Origin: a virus
Taxonomy: Duplodnaviria; Heunggongvirae; Uroviricota; Caudoviricetes
Virus record (IMG/VR): IMGVR_UViG_2778261593_000007
Coordinates: 1-6,822 of that record
Strand: one strand, 5' to 3'
DNA: 6,822 bases
Positions 1 through 6,822 of this stretch are shown piece after piece (position 1 is the first letter of the stretch; the number at the start of each line of letters is the position of its first letter). Under the pieces are notes generated by a model. That model searched no databases, had not been told where the DNA came from, and saw only the letters and a program-made list of their open reading frames with translations. Position numbers and translations under genes: made by a program.

Positions 1-753
1 CTGAACCACATTATCTGGGCGAAGCCGTCCGGACGCTGGAACGGATGCAACAAGGAAAGCCTGCGGGCGTATTTCCCGGCAACAGAACGCATTCTGTTTG
101 CGGAACATTATCAGGGGCCATACCAGCCCAAAAATGACGGCTATGCGGCAAAGGGGCGCGAGCTAAAACAGCACGTCATGGCCCCGCTGATTTCTTACTT
201 TCGTGATGCGCGTGAATCACTGGGGGTAACATCGAAACAGATAGCGGAAGCCACCGGAAAGAAAAACATGGCGTCACATTGGTTTGGTACCAGTCAGTGG
301 CAGTTGCCGAACGAGGGTGATTACAGAAAACTGCAGGTGTTATTTGCACGTGTAGCGGCAGAAAAGCATCAGCGCGGAGAACTGGAAAAACCACATCACC
401 AGCTGGTCAGCGCATACAGTGAACTGAACCGGCAATATGCCAGTCTGCTGGATGAATACAAATCACTGCGGCGTTATTTTTCCGTATCAGCTGCAGTGCC
501 GTATACGGATGTCTGGACGCACAAGCCCGTGCAGTATTATCCGGGCAAACATCCCTGCGAAAAACCGGCGGATATGTTGCGGCAGATAATAGAGGCCAGC
601 AGTCACCCTGGTGATTTGGTTGCGGATTTCTTTATGGGATCCGGGTCAACAATAAAAGCGGCGATGGCGCTGGGGCGTCGGGTAATCGGCGTTGAGCTTG
701 AAACTGAACGGTTTGAACAGACAGTCGGTGAAATTTCGGCAATGTGCAATTAA
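1..753 (+). CDS. DNA methyltransferase, beta-class N6-adenine/N4-cytosine (N6_N4_Mtase-like); 5' partial, open to window start
   Basis: Frame 1 is open from nt 1 to TAA 751-753, so the first ATG at 178 is internal. C-terminal part has HPCEKPADMLRQII followed by the SAM-binding motif DFFMGSGST, the order seen in beta-class amino-methyltransferases. The catalytic (D/N)PPY motif would lie upstream, outside the window. Confidence 0.8.
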   Translation: MNHIIWAKPSGRWNGCNKESLRAYFPATERILFAEHYQGPYQPKNDGYAAKGRELKQHVMAPLISYFRDARESLGVTSKQIAEATGKKNMASHWFGTSQWQLPNEGDYRKLQVLFARVAAEKHQRGELEKPHHQLVSAYSELNRQYASLLDEYKSLRRYFSVSAAVPYTDVWTHKPVQYYPGKHPCEKPADMLRQIIEASSHPGDLVADFFMGSGSTIKAAMALGRRVIGVELETERFEQTVGEISAMCN

Positions 754-780
754 ACCCGCCTCCATGCGGGTTGTGGTTTT
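753..780. terminator. Putative bidirectional intrinsic terminator between convergent genes
   Basis: Hairpin AACCCGC(753-759)/GCGGGTT(766-772) with loop CTCCAT, followed by GTGGTTTT (T-tract 777-780) on the + strand. It sits immediately after the methyltransferase stop and overlaps the stop of the minus-strand gene ending at 779. Confidence 0.45.
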
Positions 781-1093
781 ATGGGGTTTCAAAACTTGAT
801 TTTGATTGTTTTGAATCTAGGCGGCATGGTAATGAGATGATGCCTCGCCACCCAGGGTATGCTTTCTTAAAATCAGAAATTGCTTGCGGTTTTATTTTCC
901 CTTGCTGGATTTTTTGAAAGTCATCGAAATACAACCCGTATTTTCCACATTTCGGACAGTGAACCCTGACACCATCGGTCATGCCAAAAACACCATCGTT
1001 GTATTCAGTATCAAATTTTAAATTTGTCAGGTCTCTGAAACGCCCGCGCTCCACTTTGGCGTGAGCGTAACATGCTGGACATTGCTGATTCAT
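779..1093 (-). CDS. Hypothetical zinc-ribbon protein (104 aa), moron-like
   Basis: ORF with ATG at 1093-1091 and a GAGG Shine-Dalgarno 7 nt upstream (revcomp of 1101-1104). Two Cys pairs, CPAC near the N-terminus and HCPKCG about 40 residues later, suggest a zinc ribbon. Hand-counted GC is about 40% versus 55-60% in neighbours, and orientation is opposite to the late operon. Confidence 0.6.
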   Translation of the reverse strand: MNQQCPACYAHAKVERGRFRDLTNLKFDTEYNDGVFGMTDGVRVHCPKCGKYGLYFDDFQKIQQGKIKPQAISDFKKAYPGWRGIISLPCRLDSKQSKSSFETP

Positions 1094-1338
1094 CTGAAAA
1101 CCTCTATGAAGAATCGTTACTAATCATTGAAAGCGTCCGGACTTATGACGCCATGTATAACGTAATATTTTTACCAGAAAAAACAACTCGTTAAATCTTT
1201 CATATCCGCGCCGCGCCCGGCGCACATCAAAAAACCACAGAGCCTTTCAGGGGTGAGCTTACGGGATGGTCAGTGTGACTTTCTCTGTGGGCTGGTCACC
1301 CCCGGGCGCAGGCTCACCCACTAAAAGGAAAAGTCACT
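1094..1338. promoter_or_regulatory. Divergent intergenic region with GC-rich hairpin and a long-range inverted repeat in the leader of the downstream gene
   Basis: 245-bp gap between divergently oriented genes. GC hairpin GCGCCG(1208-1213)/CGGCGC(1218-1223). Long-range 8-bp complementary arms GGGTGAGC(1251-1258)/GCTCACCC(1312-1319) lie just upstream of SD AGGA 1326-1329. I could not place convincing sigma70 -35/-10 hexamers by eye. Confidence 0.3.
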
Positions 1339-1764
1339 ATGTTTGGTATTTTCAAAAAGAAAACCCGCAAGGCCATTACTGAAGTGAAGAAGATGGAGAA
1401 CCGCGACGCAGTGGAGGCGACTGTCTGGGGCGCGTATTCCATTGCATTCGCTGACGGTACCTGTGATGCGAAAGAAATCGCGGTACTGGAGAAAACCATT
1501 GCAGCACTCCCTGCCTTTGCGCCGTTCTCCGGTGAGATTGCACAAATGAGTGCAAATATCCGCGCCCGTTATGAAGCGTCGCCGCGCTCTGCCAATGCTG
1601 AAGCCCTTCGTCAGCTGGCTGACGTGGCAGGTACTGATGACGCGGTGAATGTGCTGTGCTTGTGTCTTGATATCGCTGACCAGGATGGCATTGGTCCGGA
1701 TGAAGAAGCACAACTCAAGAAAATTGCTCAGGCACTGCAGTTGCCGCTGGAGCAGTACCTGTGA
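1339..1764 (+). CDS. TerB-like domain protein (tellurite-resistance TerB fold), 141 aa
   Basis: ATG 1339 with SD AAGGA 1325-1329. Two acidic D-G-x(4,5)-E motifs (AFADGTCDAKEIAVLEK and DIADQDGIGPDEEAQLKKIAQAL) and a basic N-terminus (MFGIFKKKTRKA...KKM) resemble TerB family proteins as I recall them. Codon usage matches neighbouring phage genes. Confidence 0.65.
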   Translation: MFGIFKKKTRKAITEVKKMENRDAVEATVWGAYSIAFADGTCDAKEIAVLEKTIAALPAFAPFSGEIAQMSANIRARYEASPRSANAEALRQLADVAGTDDAVNVLCLCLDIADQDGIGPDEEAQLKKIAQALQLPLEQYL

Positions 1765-1913
1765 AAAGTGCGCGCCTTGTGCTGGCTGCCATCCTGCTGT
1801 TTCTGGTAGTGGCGGTGGATTTCACCGGACGACTGATGTCGGTGCTGGCAGATGGTGTGCTGGTGGCGATGGCGCTGGTCGTGCTCCGGCCTTTACTGCG
1901 TAAATCTGAATAA
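1761..1913 (+). CDS. Small membrane protein, 50 aa, two predicted TM helices (GTG start)
   Basis: GTG 1761 overlaps the upstream TGA as GTGA; SD GGAG at 1749-1752 with 8-nt spacer. Translation VKSARLVLAAILLFLVVAVDFTGRLMSVLADGVLVAMALVVLRPLLRKSE is strongly hydrophobic with CTG/GTG/GCG-rich codons. Absent from the ORF track only because it is under 60 aa. It fills an otherwise unexplained 238-nt gap. Confidence 0.4.
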   Translation: MKSARLVLAAILLFLVVAVDFTGRLMSVLADGVLVAMALVVLRPLLRKSE

Positions 1914-1920
1914 CACCACA

Positions 1921-1986
1921 CAAAAGGCATCTGCGGGTGCCTTTGACGGGGTGTTTTTATGGGCCGCTGGTGGCCCTTTTTTATTT
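1921..1986 (+). terminator. Putative rho-independent terminator (tandem hairpins plus T-tract) upstream of the lysis genes
   Basis: Hairpin 1: AAAGGCA(1923-1929)/TGCCTTT(1938-1944). Hairpin 2: GGGCC(1961-1965), loop GCTGGT, GGCCC(1972-1976), followed directly by TTTTTTATTT (1977-1986). Confidence 0.5.
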
Positions 1987-2001
1987 ACAGGAGAAAAAAG
2001 T

Positions 2002-2394
2002 ATGTCTGAACCCTTATCCGGTTCCGGCACGGCTGCGGCGCTCGGCGGGGCGACGGTATTCGGGCTGTTTACCGGAACGGATTTCGGGATTGTGTTTGGT
2101 GCGTTCGCCGGGGCGTTATTTGTGGCAACGATGCCGCAGGCGCTTTCAGCCTGGCGTGTGGCGGCGCATTTTCTGGTGTCGTTCATTATCGGCGTGCTGG
2201 GGGCAGAGGTTCTGGCATCCTGGCTGGTAAAGCATACAGAGTTTGACGGTGCACCTGTCGACGCATTGTGTGCAGTACTGGTGTCTGTATTGTCGGTAAA
2301 AGTGCTGTCCTTTGTGCACAGGCAGGACGTTATATCACTGATGTCCTGTCTGCTCTCCCGCCTGAAGAGTGGTGGAGGCGACAATGTTAAGTAA
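2002..2394 (+). CDS. Putative holin / lysis-cassette membrane protein (130 aa, 3-4 predicted TM segments)
   Basis: ATG 2002 with SD AGGAG 1989-1993 (8-nt spacer). Gly/Ala-rich hydrophobic segments (TAAALGGATVFGLFTG, FGIVFGAFAGALFVATM, AAHFLVSFIIGVLGAEVLASWL). Lies immediately upstream of the endolysin. Function is inferred from position and hydropathy only. Confidence 0.55.
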   Translation: MSEPLSGSGTAAALGGATVFGLFTGTDFGIVFGAFAGALFVATMPQALSAWRVAAHFLVSFIIGVLGAEVLASWLVKHTEFDGAPVDALCAVLVSVLSVKVLSFVHRQDVISLMSCLLSRLKSGGGDNVK

Positions 2395-2659
2395 CCTTCC
2401 CGGATTACTGAATGTGGCGTTATGCACGGTTATCGTGCTGACGCTCTTTTTTTATCGTCGCCGTGATTCCAGACATAAACCGCTGATGTCATGGCTGGCC
2501 TGGCTGCTGATGTTGCTTTATGGCTTTGTTCCACTCAGCTATCTGTGTGGTCGCCCGTTAGAAACAGACTGGTTCCAGGTGTTTTTTAACCTGCTGTTCT
2601 GCGTGCTGGTGATACGCGCACGCGGGAACGTCACAAAAATCTTTCCATTGTTGAGGTGA
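2384..2659 (+). CDS. Putative holin (91 aa from ATG 2384, about 3 TM segments, charged C-terminus)
   Basis: ATG 2384 with SD GGAGG 2374-2378 (5-nt spacer); overlaps the upstream gene by 11 nt. The ORF track extends it to GTG 2369. Hydrophobic segments LLNVALCTVIVLTLFFY, LMSWLAWLLMLLYGFVPLSYL, WFQVFFNLLFCVLVI, then basic tail RARGNVTKIFPLLR. Stop TGA 2657-2659 lies 2 nt before the endolysin ATG. Confidence 0.55.
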   Translation: MLSNLPGLLNVALCTVIVLTLFFYRRRDSRHKPLMSWLAWLLMLLYGFVPLSYLCGRPLETDWFQVFFNLLFCVLVIRARGNVTKIFPLLR

Positions 2660-2661
2660 AT

Positions 2662-3039
2662 ATGTCGGGTAAATTCAGATTTAGTCGTCGCAGCGAAAAG
2701 AATCTGGAGGGCGTTAAACCACAGCTGGTTGCTGTCGTTCGCCGTGCGCTGGAGCTGACGGAGGTTGATTTCGGTATTACGGAAGGGCTGCGCACGAAAG
2801 AACGCCAGAAACAGCTGGTCGCGGAAGGGAAAAGCCAGACCATGAACAGCCGCCACCTGACCGGTGATGCGGTGGATGTTGTTGCCTGGGTTGGCAGCCA
2901 GGTGTCATGGGACTGGCCTCTGTACGAGAAAATCGCGCAGGCATTTAAGCAGGCTGCCGCAGAGCTGGGAACTGCCATCGAATGGGGCGGGGACTGGAAA
3001 ACACTGAAAGACGGGCCTCACTTTCAGTTGAAACGCTGA
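2662..3039 (+). CDS. Endolysin, peptidase M15 family (L-alanyl-D-glutamate endopeptidase, phage T5 Lys-like)
   Basis: ATG 2662 with SD GAGGTG 2653-2658. N-terminal block SEKNLEGVKPQLVAVVRRALELTEVDFGITEGLRT closely parallels T5 endolysin as recalled. Zinc-ligand motifs SRHLTGDAVD and DGPHFQL are typical of M15/VanY peptidases. GTG 2656 is an alternative start. Confidence 0.85.
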   Translation: MSGKFRFSRRSEKNLEGVKPQLVAVVRRALELTEVDFGITEGLRTKERQKQLVAEGKSQTMNSRHLTGDAVDVVAWVGSQVSWDWPLYEKIAQAFKQAAAELGTAIEWGGDWKTLKDGPHFQLKR

Positions 3040-3053
3040 TAACCAGGTGTGTT

Positions 3054-3236
3054 ATGAGCAGAAAACACTGGACACACAGAATGCCGCGAACGGCGGCGAA
3101 ATGGGCACTGGTAGTGATACTGGTGCCTTTTTTATTGGTGGGATGCGTTAGCCTGGATAAGGCGCGCCAGCTTTTCGATACGGCTTCTCAGGTCTGTGAA
3201 ATTGTCGACGGTGTTCGGCAGTGTCTGCAGAACTGA
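3054..3236 (+). CDS. Small lipoprotein (60 aa), possible o-spanin-like or lysis-associated lipoprotein
   Basis: ATG 3054 with SD AGGTG 3045-3049. Basic N-region, hydrophobic core and lipobox LLVG-C (AAKWALVVILVPFLLVGC). The roughly 29-aa mature part has two Cys. No N-terminal-TM coiled-coil i-spanin partner is detectable. Confidence 0.55.
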   Translation: MSRKHWTHRMPRTAAKWALVVILVPFLLVGCVSLDKARQLFDTASQVCEIVDGVRQCLQN

Positions 3237-3275
3237 TCGCTGACACTCCGCATCTATATTTAAGAGGGTAGATTA

Positions 3276-3404
3276 ATGGAGAAGAAAAATAATCTAAATA
3301 AAAAAGCTGCTGCATCAGCAAATGTAGCAGTTGGCACTCGACTTAATTCAGAATGCTTCGAGAAGATAAATTCTGAATTGTTGGCGCTGTTTGATAAGAC
3401 GTGA
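3276..3404 (+). CDS. Hypothetical small protein (42 aa), AT-rich
   Basis: ATG 3276 with SD GAGG 3264-3267 (8-nt spacer), stop TGA 3402-3404. Translation MEKKNNLNKKAAASANVAVGTRLNSECFEKINSELLALFDKT. A/T-ending codons contrast with the flanking phage genes. Not in the ORF track because it is under 60 aa. Confidence 0.3.
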   Translation: MEKKNNLNKKAAASANVAVGTRLNSECFEKINSELLALFDKT

Positions 3405-3483
3405 AATTGCCGGAAGGCGCAGTCGTTACTGAGTAACAGGCATTACAGCAGCCCTTCACACAGCGATGGGCTGCGATAATGCT

Positions 3484-3684
3484 TTAGTTGTCTTTCATAA
3501 ATCCTTTAATGGCCCATCCCACAAGCCTGATGATGCTGTATACCAACAAGGCAGATATCAGGGAAACAAGGATATCAAACAGTGAAAACCCCCGGGTCTC
3601 TGTTGATAAAAGGCCGAAAATGAACACCAGAATAGCTAACAGAATTCCTACCCGGTGAAAGCCTTTAGAAATCGTGTTTTTCAT
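3484..3684 (-). CDS. Small membrane protein (66 aa, two predicted TM helices), moron-like
   Basis: ATG at 3684-3682 with a strong SD GGAGG (revcomp of 3688-3692). Hydrophobic helices GILLAILVFIFGLL and ILVSLISALLVYSIIRLVGWAI. Hand-counted GC about 41%. Opposite orientation to the late operon, in the position lambda uses for bor. Confidence 0.6.
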   Translation of the reverse strand: MKNTISKGFHRVGILLAILVFIFGLLSTETRGFSLFDILVSLISALLVYSIIRLVGWAIKGFMKDN

Positions 3685-3744
3685 TTGTCCTCCGTATTGT
3701 TTTTTTAAAGGGTGGGAATTTTAACATCAGATGAGTGAAGTTCT
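3685..3744. promoter_or_regulatory. Divergent intergenic region, probable promoters for the minus-strand membrane protein gene and the HNH/packaging genes
   Basis: 60-bp AT-rich spacer with a T7 tract (3698-3704). Weak candidate + strand hexamers TTGTTT (3697-3702) and TAACAT (3721-3726) at 18-bp spacing. Not strong. Confidence 0.25.
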
Positions 3745-4095
3745 ATGCCGTCACGAATCCCCCGCGCATGCCGTAAGCGAGGCTGCGCAGGCACAACAAC
3801 AGACAGCTCTGGCTACTGCGATAAACATCGGGGTGAAGGCTGGGTGCAGCACCAGCGCGGACTGAGCCGCCACCAGCGTGGCTATGGCTCAAAATGGACG
3901 GTGATTCGCGCCCGTATACTGAAGCGCGATAAAGGTCTGTGTCAGTTGTGTCTGCGTGTTGGTGTGGTGAGCGAGGCGAAAACTGTCGACCACATCATCC
4001 CGAAAGCGCATGGCGGAACAGACGCAGACAGCAACCTGCAGAGTCTGTGCTGGCCCTGCCATAAAGCGAAAACAGCGCGCGAACGAATCAGGTGA
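3745..4095 (+). CDS. HNH endonuclease, phage packaging-associated (HK97 gp74-like)
   Basis: N-terminal Cys cluster (CRKRGC...YCDKH) and C-terminal HNH motif DHIIPKAHGGTDADSNLQSLCWPCHKAKT. Located immediately upstream of the terminase small subunit, as in HK97-like phages. Confidence 0.85.
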   Translation: MPSRIPRACRKRGCAGTTTDSSGYCDKHRGEGWVQHQRGLSRHQRGYGSKWTVIRARILKRDKGLCQLCLRVGVVSEAKTVDHIIPKAHGGTDADSNLQSLCWPCHKAKTARERIR

Positions 4096-4210
4096 TAATT
4101 ATTCTCACTTGTGGGGAGGGGCGGGTCAAATCCCTGCAACCCTGGCTGTCCGGGACCGCCCGCCCCGTCAAATTTTTACACCCGCGAAATTAAAAATTTC
4201 AGGATTTGAC
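4096..4210. other. Candidate cos / terminase recognition region between HNH and terminase small subunit genes
   Basis: GC-rich inverted repeat GGGGCGGG(4118-4125)/CCCGCCCC(4159-4166), then a perfect 9-bp AT-rich inverted repeat AAATTTTTA(4170-4178)/TAAAAATTT(4191-4199) just before the terminase small subunit SD and ATG 4211. By analogy with HK97, cos lies between the HNH gene and gene 1. Confidence 0.4.
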
Positions 4211-4681
4211 ATGTCAGGAAAATCTGTTGCGCCCGGAAGAGGGAGAAAGCCGAAGCCGACCACCCGTAAGGAGCTGGCAGGCAATCCCGGCAAGCGGGCA
4301 TTAAATAAGTTTGAGCCAAAATTCACGCCGATCACCCATGCTGACCCTCCCGAGTGGTTTGATGAAACCGCTCGCCATATGTGGGATACCATTATTCGTG
4401 AGCTCTGTGCCCAGCGAGTTCTTTATGTTACTGATTTGCATAATGTCGTTGCATTCTGCACTGCTTTTCGCAACTGGCATGAGTCGCAGCAGGAGGTTAT
4501 GCGCGTTGGGATTACGGTAGAGAGTGAGGCGGGGCCAAAGAAAAACCCGGCACTCACGGCGGCAAATGAGGCCGCCAGACAAATGGTGACATTCGGTAGT
4601 TTATTAGGGCTCGATCCTGCCAGTCGGCAGCGGCTTATGACGCCGAAGCAGGGGAGCGATAATCCATTTAAAAACCTATGA
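4211..4681 (+). CDS. Terminase small subunit (P27/HK97 gp1-like family), 156 aa
   Basis: ATG 4211 with SD AGGA 4201-4204. Basic N-terminus with the GNPGKR motif ([24 protein letters not shown]). Stop overlaps the large subunit start as ATGA. The track ORF 4010-4681 is an in-frame read-through of the intergenic region. Confidence 0.8.
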
Positions 4682-6408
4682 CACGAAAAAATTACGTGAA
4701 CGTTAACGCCGCAAATCAGTATGCACGTGACGTGGTTCGCGGAAAAATTCAGGTTTGCCGTTATGTCGTTCTGGCCTGCCAGCGTCACCTTGATGACCTG
4801 GAAAACTCAGCTAAAAAAAACTATCCGTTTAAATTTGATAAGGATAAAGCTGAGCGTGTGGCGAAATTTATCCAGCTTTTGCCACACACCAAAGGGGAGT
4901 GGGCATTTAAACGGATGCCCATTACGCTTGAACCCTGGCAGTTGTTCTGTATTTGTGTTGTGTTTGGGTGGGTGAGAAAAAAGAGCGGCCTGCGTCGATT
5001 TCGCGAGGCTTACAACGAAATACCCCGTAAAAACGGGAAATCAGCAATGTCTGCTGGCGTTGGTCTGTATATGTTTGCCTGCGATGATGAATTTGGCGCT
5101 GAAGTGTATTCCGGGGCCACAACAGAGAAACAGGCGTGGGAAGTTTTTCGTCCAGCCAGACTGATGGCGCAACGCACGGAACCATTGCGTGAAGCATTTG
5201 GTATTGAAGTACATGCTCAAAGCATGAGCCGTCCGGAGGACGGTGCCCGTTTTGAACCGTTGATTGGAGATCCCGGAGACGGCGCGTCGCCGAGTTGCGC
5301 CCTCATTGATGAATATCACGAGCATCAGACCGATGCGCTTTACCAGACGATGCAAACTGGGATGGGGGCACGTCGTCAGCCGCTGATTTTTGGTATCACC
5401 ACTGCGGGCTATAACATTGAAGGACCATGCTACGACAAACGTCGTGAAGTGATCGAAATGCTTGAAGGGATTGTGCCCAATGATGAACTGTTCGGGATTA
5501 TTTATACCATTGACGACGGGGATGACTGGACAGATCCGGCGGTATTGCGTAAAGCGAACCCCAATATGGGGATTTCTGTCTACAGCGATTACCTGTTATC
5601 TCAACAGCGCGCGGCAATTAACAACCCACGAAAAGTGGGCGTATTCAAAACGAAACATCTGAATATCTGGGTGGCAGCAAAAGACGCCTTCTTCAATCTT
5701 GTGAACTGGCAGAAATGTGAAGACAGGAGTCTGACGCTGGAGCGTTTTGAGGGGCATACCTGCATCCTGGCGTTTGACCTTGCGCGAAAGCTGGATTTGA
5801 ACGCGATGGTACGGCTTTTTACCCGAGAGATTGACGGTAAAACGCATTATTATTGTGTCGCACCCAAGTTTTTTGTTCCCTACGACACAATCTACAGCGC
5901 TGATGTGACAGACAGTCGCACAGCAGAACGTTATCAGAAGTGGGTTGAAGGGGGATTTATTACCGTTACCGATGGCGCGGAAATTGATTACCGGGAGATC
6001 CTTGAGTCTGCGAAAGAAGCAAATCGCTTAAACGCAGTGGAGGAGTCACCTATAGATCCCCACGGAGCCACAAACCTTTCTCACCACCTTGCTGATGAAA
6101 ACTTAAACCCTATTACCATCATTCAGAACTACACCAATATGTCGGATCCCATGAAGGAACTTGAGGCGGCTATTGAGGCCGGGCGTTTTCATCATGATGG
6201 TAATCCTGTGATGACATGGTGTATCAGCAACGTGATTGGAAAGCACATTCCCGGCGACGATGATGTTGTTCGTCCGATCAAACAAGGCAACGAAAACAAA
6301 ATCGATGGTGCTGTGGCGCTGATTATGGCGATTGGTCGTTGCATGCTATTTGAGAAAGAAGACACGCTGTCTGACCACATTGAGTCCTACGGGATCCGTT
6401 CGCTTTAA
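4678..6408 (+). CDS. Terminase large subunit (Terminase_1 / HK97-like), 576 aa
   Basis: Walker A-like PRKNGKS, Walker B-like ALIDEYHEH, and a C-terminal nuclease-like region with conserved acidic residues (DGAVALIMA). Start is translationally coupled to the small subunit (ATGA at 4678-4681). Confidence 0.9.
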
Positions 6409-6419
6409 CTGAGGTAATT

Positions 6420-6602
6420 ATGATCATGCTGATTCTCGCGCCTCTGGTGGGCGTGCTGGGTGTGCTTTTGCTGGCGTATGGTGCCTGGCTGATTTATCCC
6501 CCGGCTGGTTTTGTTGTTGCCGGGGCGCTGTGCCTGTTCTGGTCGTGGCTGGTGGCACGATATCTCGACCGTACACGGCAGTCTGTCGGCGGAGGTAAAT
6601 AG
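6420..6602 (+). CDS. Small membrane protein (60 aa, two predicted TM helices) between terminase and portal
   Basis: ATG 6420 with SD GAGG 6411-6414 (5-nt spacer). Translation [60 protein letters not shown]. Host-like GC-rich codons. Stop TAG 6600-6602 overlaps the portal GTG 6602. Confidence 0.5.
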
Positions 6603-6822
6603 TGTTCTTTTCGGGGTTATTTCAACGAAAAAGTGACGCACCAGTGACCACGCCAGCAGAGCTGGCGGAGGCTATCGGGCTGTCATACGACACCTATACC
6701 GGAAAGCGGATCAGCAGCCAGCGGGCCATGCGACTGACGGCGGTCTATTCCTGCGTCAGGGTGCTGGCTGAGTCTGTTGGTATGCTGCCCTGCAGTCTCT
6801 ACAAAATCAGCGGCACCCTTAA
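6602..6822 (+). CDS. Portal protein, HK97 family; 3' partial, runs off window end
   Basis: GTG 6602 with SD GGAGG 6591-6595. Translation [73 protein letters not shown] matches the conserved N-terminal region of HK97-family portals. Missing from the ORF track, presumably because it has no in-window stop. Confidence 0.8.
   Translation, partial: MFFSGLFQRKSDAPVTTPAELAEAIGLSYDTYTGKRISSQRAMRLTAVYSCVRVLAESVGMLPCSLYKISGTL

Follow-up and report, generated by a model that had tools for sequence, protein, structure and literature searches.

How is the outer membrane breached by a phage of a Gram-negative host in which no complete spanin can be recognised? The question is raised by a lysis cassette (positions 2002–3236) in a 6,822-nucleotide (nt) stretch of viral DNA assigned to the Caudoviricetes (positions 1–6,822 of IMG/VR record IMGVR_UViG_2778261593_000007; this whole stretch is referred to as the window). 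In the cassette, two predicted holins and a predicted endolysin are followed by a gene for a 60-amino-acid (aa) lipoprotein (3054–3236, + strand), and no gene for an inner-membrane spanin (i-spanin) is apparent. Approximately 13% of phages of Gram-negative hosts are without an identifiable spanin, and 31 genomes in a 2018 census had a lipoprotein but no i-spanin (PMC6139136). For the breaching of the outer membrane in such spanin-less phages, the disruptin of phiKT is the single worked example. The lipoprotein itself is not new, having been catalogued in 2018 as a putative outer-membrane spanin (o-spanin). The comparisons presented here lean, by a modest degree, towards its being an outer-membrane lysis factor that is derived from an o-spanin and acts in the absence of a phage i-spanin. 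That interpretation is favoured for four reasons: the spanin slot is taken by this gene in several independent backbones, the gene accompanies lysis genes rather than virion genes, it appears to be derived from an o-spanin gene, and purifying selection acts on it in phages that have no other spanin.

To judge by sequence identity, the window (6.8 kb) represents the late region of a phiP27-type temperate phage of Escherichia coli: positions 1700–3760 share 91–94% identity with phiP27, phiSTEC1575-Stx2k and numerous E. coli prophages. PhiP27 is the Shiga toxin (Stx) 2e-converting phage of E. coli. The lipoprotein gene lies on the late-gene strand, starting 14 nt past the endolysin stop codon, with a Shine–Dalgarno-like motif (AGGTG) 4 nt upstream. 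The product comprises a predicted signal peptide (codons 1–30, 3054–3143; MSRKHWTHRMPRTAAKWALVVILVPFLLVG), with a basic n-region and a hydrophobic h-region, and a mature peptide of 30 aa (C31–N60, 3144–3233; CVSLDKARQLFDTASQVCEIVDGVRQCLQN). A lipobox scan placed the lipobox at L28-V29-G30-C31 (3135–3146), and two further cysteines, C48 and C57, are situated in the mature part. The original prediction, made from the letters of the DNA alone, of a 60-aa lipoprotein with the lipobox LLVGC and two mature cysteines is borne out by these data. Position +2 is Val32 and not Asp, which implies sorting to the outer membrane. The lipobox and the non-Asp +2 residue that characterise o-spanins are thus both present, and all of 24 homologues share the lipobox (L-x-G-C). 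C48 does not vary either and C57 hardly varies, the spacing of the two is kept in both subfamilies of the protein, and a periplasmic cysteine available for intermolecular disulfides, as in o-spanins, is likewise present. In hydropathy analysis the signal peptide was the sole hydrophobic segment. No C-terminal transmembrane (TM) segment was seen, as had also been predicted, and the lipoprotein therefore does not have the architecture of a unimolecular spanin (u-spanin) of the T1 gp11 type.

It is apparent that the lipoprotein gene is real, and not a chance open reading frame (ORF). For 51 distinct nucleotide variants from 86 loci, the ratio of nonsynonymous to synonymous diversity (pN/pS) was 0.17 in the gene's own frame, as opposed to 1.0 and 2.1 in the alternative frames, and was 0.14 for the mature peptide. 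The reading frame is intact in 49 of these variants. Of 5,426 complete E. coli genomes, 296 (approximately 5%) contain the gene, some of them in as many as seven copies, and it also occurs in 273 IMG/VR contigs; its product is annotated as a 'hypothetical protein' or not at all. Many database entries list the lipoprotein as an 84-aa product of an upstream ATG (the equivalent of window position 2982), a start that is probably wrong.

The protein matches phrog_7528 (E 5e-38), a family of unassigned function, and no family was found for it in Pfam or NCBIfam. A profile search of 1.84 billion representative proteins returned only 23 clusters, all of them Enterobacteriaceae lipoproteins of the same type, 44–71 aa in length. 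When the mature part was searched against Pfam, NCBIfam, PHROGs and PDB sequences, no remote homologue was detected. Mature peptides of two subtypes are represented by CVSLDKARQLFDTASQVCEIVDGVRQCLQN and CVSLEKARNWFGVAADVCDTVKKIKDRCNDRK. The features kept are the lipidation cysteine, a cysteine 17 residues on and a third cysteine 9–10 residues further; proline is mostly absent. A hydrophobic 3–4 repeat runs continuously through the mature peptide, and in each of two heptad registers seven of the eight a/d positions are hydrophobic.

The lipoprotein might be one half of an ordinary two-component spanin, the inner-membrane partner of which has gone unrecognised; candidates for that partner would be a 64-aa ORF of phiP27, the second holin, a DUF3927 protein encoded upstream of the holins, or a host protein. 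Sequences were therefore scanned in all frames, from all ATG, GTG and TTG starts, for ORFs encoding an N-terminal TM segment with a soluble tail, or for a further lipobox ORF. Neither the window nor the complete 42.6-kb genome of phiP27 yielded an i-spanin candidate or a second lipobox ORF, and no recurrent candidate was found in the flanks (−2.2/+1.2 kb) of the lipoprotein gene in 87 related loci. As a positive control, the genuine Rz/Rz1 genes of phage GER2 were recovered by the scan. Matches considered as embedded or nested spanin genes were rejected, representing internal holin fragments, the StxB signal peptide and Cys/Arg-rich artefacts of alternative frames. These results uphold the earlier claim that no i-spanin is recognisable here; none was found embedded or downstream. 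The RefSeq annotation of phiP27 contains no spanin. In a survey of Stx phages, the Rz gene family (pham) was present in 277 of 279, the two exceptions being a Stx2e cluster with a metallopeptidase endolysin (PMC8136144). That Rz-less cluster consists of P27-like phages.

The 2018 census lists phiP27 as possessing a 'separated' two-component spanin, the only pair of 'PhiP27' type (PMC6139136). The pair consists of an i-spanin at 20348–20542 (64 aa, with 32 periplasmic residues and no coiled coil) and an o-spanin at 20706–20861 (51 aa, with a 30-aa mature part), and at 62 residues it is the shortest in the whole census (PMC6139136). The window lipoprotein is the orthologue of that o-spanin, with 93% identity, but the listed i-spanin is absent from the window and from all other relatives. 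As a partner for the window lipoprotein it was rejected, the best tblastn match in the window (E 0.016) being situated in the HNH gene. Its ORF lies in an insert of approximately 480 bp that the window lacks, begins with TTG, belongs to no PHROG family and, among 88 loci, occurs only in copies of phiP27 itself. Related loci are designated here by L-numbers, L001 being phiP27, L002 PP818812.1 and L089 phage GER2 (MG710528). In L001, the 'i-spanin' ORF (3877–4071, + strand) is antisense to a 90-aa gene (3861–4133, − strand) that matches phrog_36812 (E 5e-20). In L071, where a 46%-identical homologue of the minus-strand gene is found, only the frame of that gene is open, the 'i-spanin' frame being interrupted. 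The i-spanin listed for phiP27 is probably a false positive, as far as these comparisons allow it to be judged, and since the entry is likely to be a false call, phiP27 would join the phages that have a lipoprotein without an i-spanin. Because the published call does not hold, the lipoprotein is treated below as partnerless.

Some support for an unrecognised partner can be drawn from the census, in which the separated pair is listed and from which type I or lipoprotein i-spanins would have escaped (PMC6139136). The periplasmic loop of holin 2 also contains a cysteine. However, the 64-aa ORF is set aside by its restriction to phiP27 copies, its antisense position and its lack of a family and of a window homologue, and no neighbouring gene is common to all of the contexts in which the lipoprotein is found: L005 and L097 have a different holin family, and DUF3927 is absent from many loci. 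A two-component spanin with a hidden partner is thus distinctly improbable, though a host partner is conceivable.

Evidence as to the ancestry of the lipoprotein is provided by its signal peptide. When the 60-aa protein was compared with phage genomes by tblastn, weak matches (E 0.09–0.7) were consistently obtained on the Rz1 frame of SfV, SfII, SfIV, SKA5, 118970_sal3 and Klebsiella prophages. What the matched proteins have in common is the signal peptide, with its distinctive n-region (SRKHWTHRMPRTAAKW in the window and SRSHWSHREPRKISKW in SfV). Local alignment of the signal peptides gave a score of 82, compared with 23 ± 4.3 for shuffled sequences, and none of 2000 shuffles reached 82; for the n-region alone the score was 67, compared with 21 ± 4.8. 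SfV Rz1, which is a LysC-family o-spanin (PF23793, E 1.7e-17), reciprocally matched phrog_7528 (E 4e-5), and hhalign of the lipoprotein against LysC/Rz1 families gave a probability of 96.8% (E 2.5e-10) over residues 2–35. From this homology it follows that at least the 5′ half of the gene is shared with an o-spanin gene of the overlapped type.

The mature part is another matter. No match of the lipoprotein to PF23793 was obtained at E ≤ 10, so that no LysC domain was detected. In the best register, VSLDKARQLFDTASQVCEIVDGVRQ aligns with ASLDLNVSLLSALGQCNIDKAGIRS of LysC (pattern SLD...L...Q.C...G[IV]R) at 28% identity, which is not significant: the BLOSUM local score was 18, compared with 17.9 for shuffled sequences, and hhalign gave E values of 0.26–0.37. 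On this evidence the mature domain would be either new or diverged beyond recognition. A remnant Rz frame considered at 3047–3151 was rejected, in that its alignment was not significant and DNA similarity to SfV and SKA5 begins only at the HNH gene.

In its setting, the lipoprotein gene resembles those of the LysC/Rz1 o-spanins of SfV, SfII, SKA5 and P2-like phages (PF23793, phrog_456). It is located directly after the endolysin gene, within the order holins, endolysin, spanin slot, HNH, small terminase (terS), large terminase (terL), and its homologous signal peptide shares the unusual n-region SRxHWxHRxPRxxxKW. In contrast, LysC has a mature part of approximately 73 aa, with a Pro-rich linker and a LysC domain, and is encoded by a gene that overlaps the Rz/LysB i-spanin gene, whereas the mature window lipoprotein is only 30 aa long, contains no proline and is accompanied by no Rz.

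The restriction of LysC homology to the signal peptide would also be expected of a vestige, that is, the leftover of an SfV-type Rz/Rz1 pair that was largely deleted. Such a remnant would have no role in lysis, and would persist through an embedded terminator-like hairpin or a minor effect on the envelope, with the outer membrane ruptured by shear or envelope weakness. A hairpin of this kind is indeed present within the signal-peptide codons (3103–3138, + strand). It has a GC-rich stem of 11 bp followed by a run of six to seven T residues, resembling an intrinsic terminator. Its stability is approximately −16 kcal/mol in all 86 copies examined, it is retained even in a pseudogene in GER2, and it coincides with the lowest synonymous diversity in the lipoprotein gene (pS 0.115). 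The hairpin might serve as a Q-sensitive terminator or attenuator of the downstream packaging genes. Nevertheless, it is the mature peptide on which purifying selection acts most strongly, the alternative frames evolve neutrally, the three cysteines and the hydrophobic repeat are kept in two diverged subfamilies, almost all variants are intact, and the gene has been relocated as a precise unit (3051–3240) behind different endolysins. A remnant devoid of lysis function is therefore unlikely.

The movement of the gene is evident from its contexts in other phages, which are more informative than any other evidence presented here. In most of 80 IMG/VR loci, the lipoprotein gene directly follows an M15 endolysin gene, as in the window. 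In many other loci the endolysin is a muramidase of GH108+PG_binding_3 type; in L077 and L095 the lipoprotein start overlaps the stop codon of such an endolysin as ATGA. The accompanying holins vary (PF16931+PF05449, 31–33%-identical versions of these, or lambda-S-like PF05106), as do the packaging genes downstream (HNH+Terminase_4, lambda Nu1+gpA, DUF1441-type, Mu-like DUF1804+Portal_Mu, or Terminase_2). A KilA-N gene, a minus-strand moron or small membrane ORFs may be situated between the endolysin and the lipoprotein, but the latter still marks the 3′ end of the lysis genes. In L002 a KilA-N insertion precedes the lipoprotein gene, which is unannotated there. Around the lipoprotein, the homology block shared by the window and phiP27 corresponds exactly to the gene, from which it may be concluded that the gene moves as a unit. 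It is linked to lysis cassettes, and not to virion modules, across at least four unrelated packaging modules.

Comparison with phages that carry canonical spanins, and whose holin pairs are homologous or whose flanking genes are the same, reveals in four independent contexts that the position occupied by the lipoprotein gene is that of the spanin genes. In SfV and SKA5 the order is endolysin, Rz/Rz1, HNH, terS. In mEp390 an i-spanin and an o-spanin gene lie between the endolysin gene and gp53, and in L098 the lipoprotein gene lies between the endolysin gene and a gp53-like gene. F1055 has an embedded Rz/Rz1 pair in the corresponding slot. A small phrog_4493 ORF is followed by Rz/Rz1 in the Stx phage GER2 and by the lipoprotein gene in L046. 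Small ORFs with hydrophobic C termini, belonging to phrog_4493/1115 and phrog_4906, were observed between the endolysin gene and either Rz/Rz1 (in Stx phages) or the lipoprotein gene (L046 3826–3999, L061 3662–3996 and L089 2130–2282); it is possible that these ORFs encode lysis accessory proteins.

The linkage to lysis genes bears as well on a role in receptor blocking or superinfection exclusion, of the type known for T5 Llp and for Cor of phi80 and N15. A late lipoprotein of that kind would shield progeny from adsorption to debris, or exclude other phages, and the phage would be truly spanin-less as regards lysis. The window lipoprotein is, like such proteins, small and predicted to be located in the outer membrane, and it has two extra conserved cysteines. 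Llp also has two extra cysteines. The mature domain of the window lipoprotein is unrelated to known spanins, and the scan of the window, phiP27 and the 87 loci revealed no i-spanin partner. On the other hand, Llp and Cor genes adjoin tail or receptor-binding genes, whereas the lipoprotein gene stays with the lysis cassette in Mu-like, lambda-like and P27-like phages and is therefore untied to any one receptor-binding protein. It always lies 3′ of the endolysin gene and is often translationally coupled to it. A consensus scan of 1700–3800 revealed no sigma-70-like promoter, and none for the lipoprotein gene itself such as would mark a moron, although such a scan is weak evidence. Given the signal peptide homologous to those of LysC/Rz1, together with the linkage to lysis cassettes, disruption of the outer membrane is likelier than receptor blocking, to which only a small probability is assigned.

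If the lipoprotein is an outer-membrane lysis factor, lysis may be pictured as follows. The two holin-family proteins would permeabilise the inner membrane, and the resulting holes would release the signal-less cytoplasmic M15 L-alanyl-D-glutamate (L-Ala-D-Glu) endopeptidase, which would cut the peptidoglycan; homology supports both of these steps. Signal peptidase II would cleave the prelipoprotein once Cys31 had been lipidated, and Val at position +2 would direct the product, by Lol sorting, to the outer membrane, in whose inner leaflet its amphipathic, cysteine-containing helix of 29 residues would replace a two-component spanin as the factor for the outer-membrane step. The proposed descent is from an o-spanin of LysC/Rz1 type, at least as regards the signal sequence, with the phage i-spanin lost and a much shorter, new mature domain gained. 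More speculatively, and as the likeliest mode of action, disulfide-linked oligomers of the lipid-anchored helix may perturb the outer membrane once the peptidoglycan has been removed. Alternatively, the oligomers could reach directly to the apposed inner membrane and so serve as a minimal spanin of one component, or could activate OmpLA, as bacteriocin release proteins do. Any such action must follow peptidoglycan removal, because a 30-residue helix cannot bridge the intact periplasm.

A number of observations must be weighed against this interpretation. The lipoprotein has no cognate i-spanin gene and no LysC domain, and its 30-aa mature part, lacking a partner, is too short to span the periplasm; as a helix, 30 residues would extend for approximately 4.5 nm. 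To our knowledge, known o-spanins are inactive without their i-spanins, as is the case for lambda Rz1. The mature peptide has no significant similarity to spanins, to the BRP/Lysis_col family or to other Pfam or NCBIfam families. Its amphipathicity is moderate only (P values of 0.007–0.49 against shuffled sequences), and its net charge varies across the family from −4 to +3, so that it is not a cationic, disruptin-like peptide. AlphaFold2 models a single helix over residues 12–59 with low confidence (pLDDT 68); for the phiP27 orthologue, 83% helix is predicted in the 2018 census (PMC6139136). The GER2 copy (L089 3489–3668), which is situated between the lysis genes and the terminase gene of a phage with a canonical lambda-type Rz/Rz1, has decayed, with four in-frame stop codons; this decay speaks for the interpretation, but the pseudogene is a single case. 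Finally, in the defective relatives Rac-SA53 and SerU-LTIIb, toxin genes occupy the slot and the lipoprotein is missing.

Among known systems, the T1 gp11 u-spanin is also a single gene, placed last in the lysis cassette, whose product has an outer-membrane lipoprotein signal. However, the mature domain of gp11 is β-rich and exceeds 100 aa, and gp11 is anchored in the inner membrane by a TM segment at its C terminus; the window lipoprotein has neither of these features. Bacteriocin release proteins (PF02402) and entericidin B are, like the window product, lone small lipoproteins, with mature parts of approximately 27–30 residues. Proteins of both these kinds need no partner protein in order to permeabilise or lyse the envelope. 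PF02402 did not match the window lipoprotein; one relative gave an E value of 0.072, confined to the lipobox. The release proteins are, moreover, Gly/Ser/Thr-rich and unstructured, lack extra cysteines and are encoded in colicin operons, whereas the window lipoprotein belongs to a phage lysis cassette. The disruptin gp28 of phiKT (bioRxiv 10.1101/515445) is similarly a small helical peptide that effects a non-spanin outer-membrane step in a spanin-less coliphage. Disruptin is cationic, non-lipidated and similar to antimicrobial peptides, whereas members of the window lipoprotein family are predicted to be lipid-anchored and are variable in charge. A cationic antimicrobial-peptide function was rejected for the lipoprotein, since net charge is not conserved.

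A stronger proposal is that a single lipid-anchored peptide of approximately 30 residues, which arose when an o-spanin lost its i-spanin partner and had its mature domain replaced, suffices for the outer-membrane step. This is advanced only tentatively, and the odds are judged to be somewhat against it. If the lipoprotein does work alone, it would define a minimal outer-membrane-disrupting lipopeptide and would show the collapse of a two-component spanin to one component. If it is indeed sufficient, spanins and disruptin would be joined by a third kind of factor for outer-membrane lysis, one that is widespread among E. coli prophages, the Stx2e phage P27 included. The cassette offers a tractable E. 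coli case, consisting of a 183-bp gene in approximately 5% of complete genomes, under purifying selection and located in the spanin slot of unrelated backbones. The present data also correct what is probably a false i-spanin entry for phiP27 in the reference spanin catalogue, and they are of relevance to the release of Stx2e-converting phages.

The remaining genes of the cassette are ordinary members of known families. Holin 1 (2002–2394, + strand; 130 aa) has three to four hydrophobic segments and an aggag Shine–Dalgarno motif, and corresponds to the annotated holin L28 of phiP27. It matches PF16931, Phage_holin_8 (E 2.9e-22; 79.5 bits, with a cut-off of 26.4), and the holin family phrog_198 (E 1.3e-40). 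Holin 2 (2384–2659, + strand; 91 aa), the counterpart of phiP27 L29, overlaps holin 1 by 11 nt and has three TM segments, a GGAGG Shine–Dalgarno motif and an alternative GTG start at 2369. Its matches are to PF05449, Phage_holin_3_7 (E 6.8e-24; 84.1 bits, with a cut-off of 25.4), and to phrog_217 (E 2.5e-39). By profile match, multiple TM segments and location upstream of the endolysin gene, both membrane proteins have the properties of phage holins, their families being labelled as putative holins. The overlapping multi-TM proteins of the original prediction are thereby recovered, and it is holin families that they match.

The endolysin gene (2662–3039, + strand; 125 aa) has an alternative GTG start at 2656. 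The protein matches PF13539, Peptidase_M15_4 (E 3e-12), and phrog_465 (E 1e-75) and contains the metal-site motifs SRHLTGDAVD and DGPHF. Among PDB entries, the L-Ala-D-Glu endopeptidases 23ri, 8q2g and ChiX (5opz, E 1e-42) were the closest, matched at E values of approximately 1e-43, and the T5 endolysin (2mxz) at 2e-23. Profile, structural homology and motifs agree in predicting an M15 L-Ala-D-Glu endopeptidase of T5/ChiX type, consistent with the earlier designation of a T5-like M15 enzyme. It has no TM segment, signal or signal-arrest-release segment and, because it has no hydrophobic segment, is taken to be a canonical cytoplasmic, holin-dependent endolysin. It is close to ChiX of the Serratia marcescens ChiWXYZ system and more distant from the T5 L-Ala-D-Glu peptidase. 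ChiX partners with the spanin-like ChiY and ChiZ, and T5 has an overlapped spanin pair. Unlike in those two systems, no spanin-type pair was found beside the window endolysin.

Upstream of the holins are genes for a DNA methylase (178–753, + strand), a TerB-like protein (1339–1764, + strand) and a DUF3927/TciB-like protein of 50 aa with two TM segments (1761–1913, + strand). The latter two genes (1339–1913) occupy the site at which phiP27 carries stx2eAB, and in Rac-SA53 and SerU-LTIIb, LT-II enterotoxin genes lie directly after the endolysin gene. The flanks of the phiP27-type lysis cassette are a hot spot for cargo genes. Just 5′ of holin 1, the scan for terminator-like sites identified a GC-rich hairpin with a T-run (1961–1986, + strand). 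This site looks like a tR′-type late terminator, and may be read through by Q-modified polymerase.

Downstream of the lipoprotein gene is a 42-aa ORF (3276–3404, + strand) whose product would be soluble. It is of doubtful reality, is not a spanin and had no match in family searches, PHROGs included. Its counterpart in phiP27 is situated between the endolysin and lipoprotein genes (L001 3665–3880). In phiP27 and L071 the homologue is fused to an ORF whose start codon, equivalent to the ATG at window position 2982, lies within the 3′ end of the endolysin gene. Between the lipoprotein and HNH genes, a 66-aa protein with two TM segments and no family assignment is encoded on the minus strand (3484–3684); it is a variable moron outside the cassette, and only some related loci carry one.

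The HNH endonuclease gene (3745–4095, + strand) is separated from that of the P27-type small terminase (4211–4681, + strand) by the phiP27 cos sequence, CGCCCGCCCC (4157–4166). The terS start is most likely to be ATG 4211, as in the phiP27 annotation, because the long ORF (4010–4681) overlaps the HNH gene. The host label of 'Actinobacillus phage vB_Apl-pPE4' (L002, PP818812.1) looks doubtful, since its DNA is 94% identical to the present E. coli prophage region. The large terminase gene (4678–6408, + strand) is directly followed by an ORF for a 60-aa product with two TM segments (6420–6602, + strand), the position of which matches that of the 'membrane protein' L37 of phiP27.

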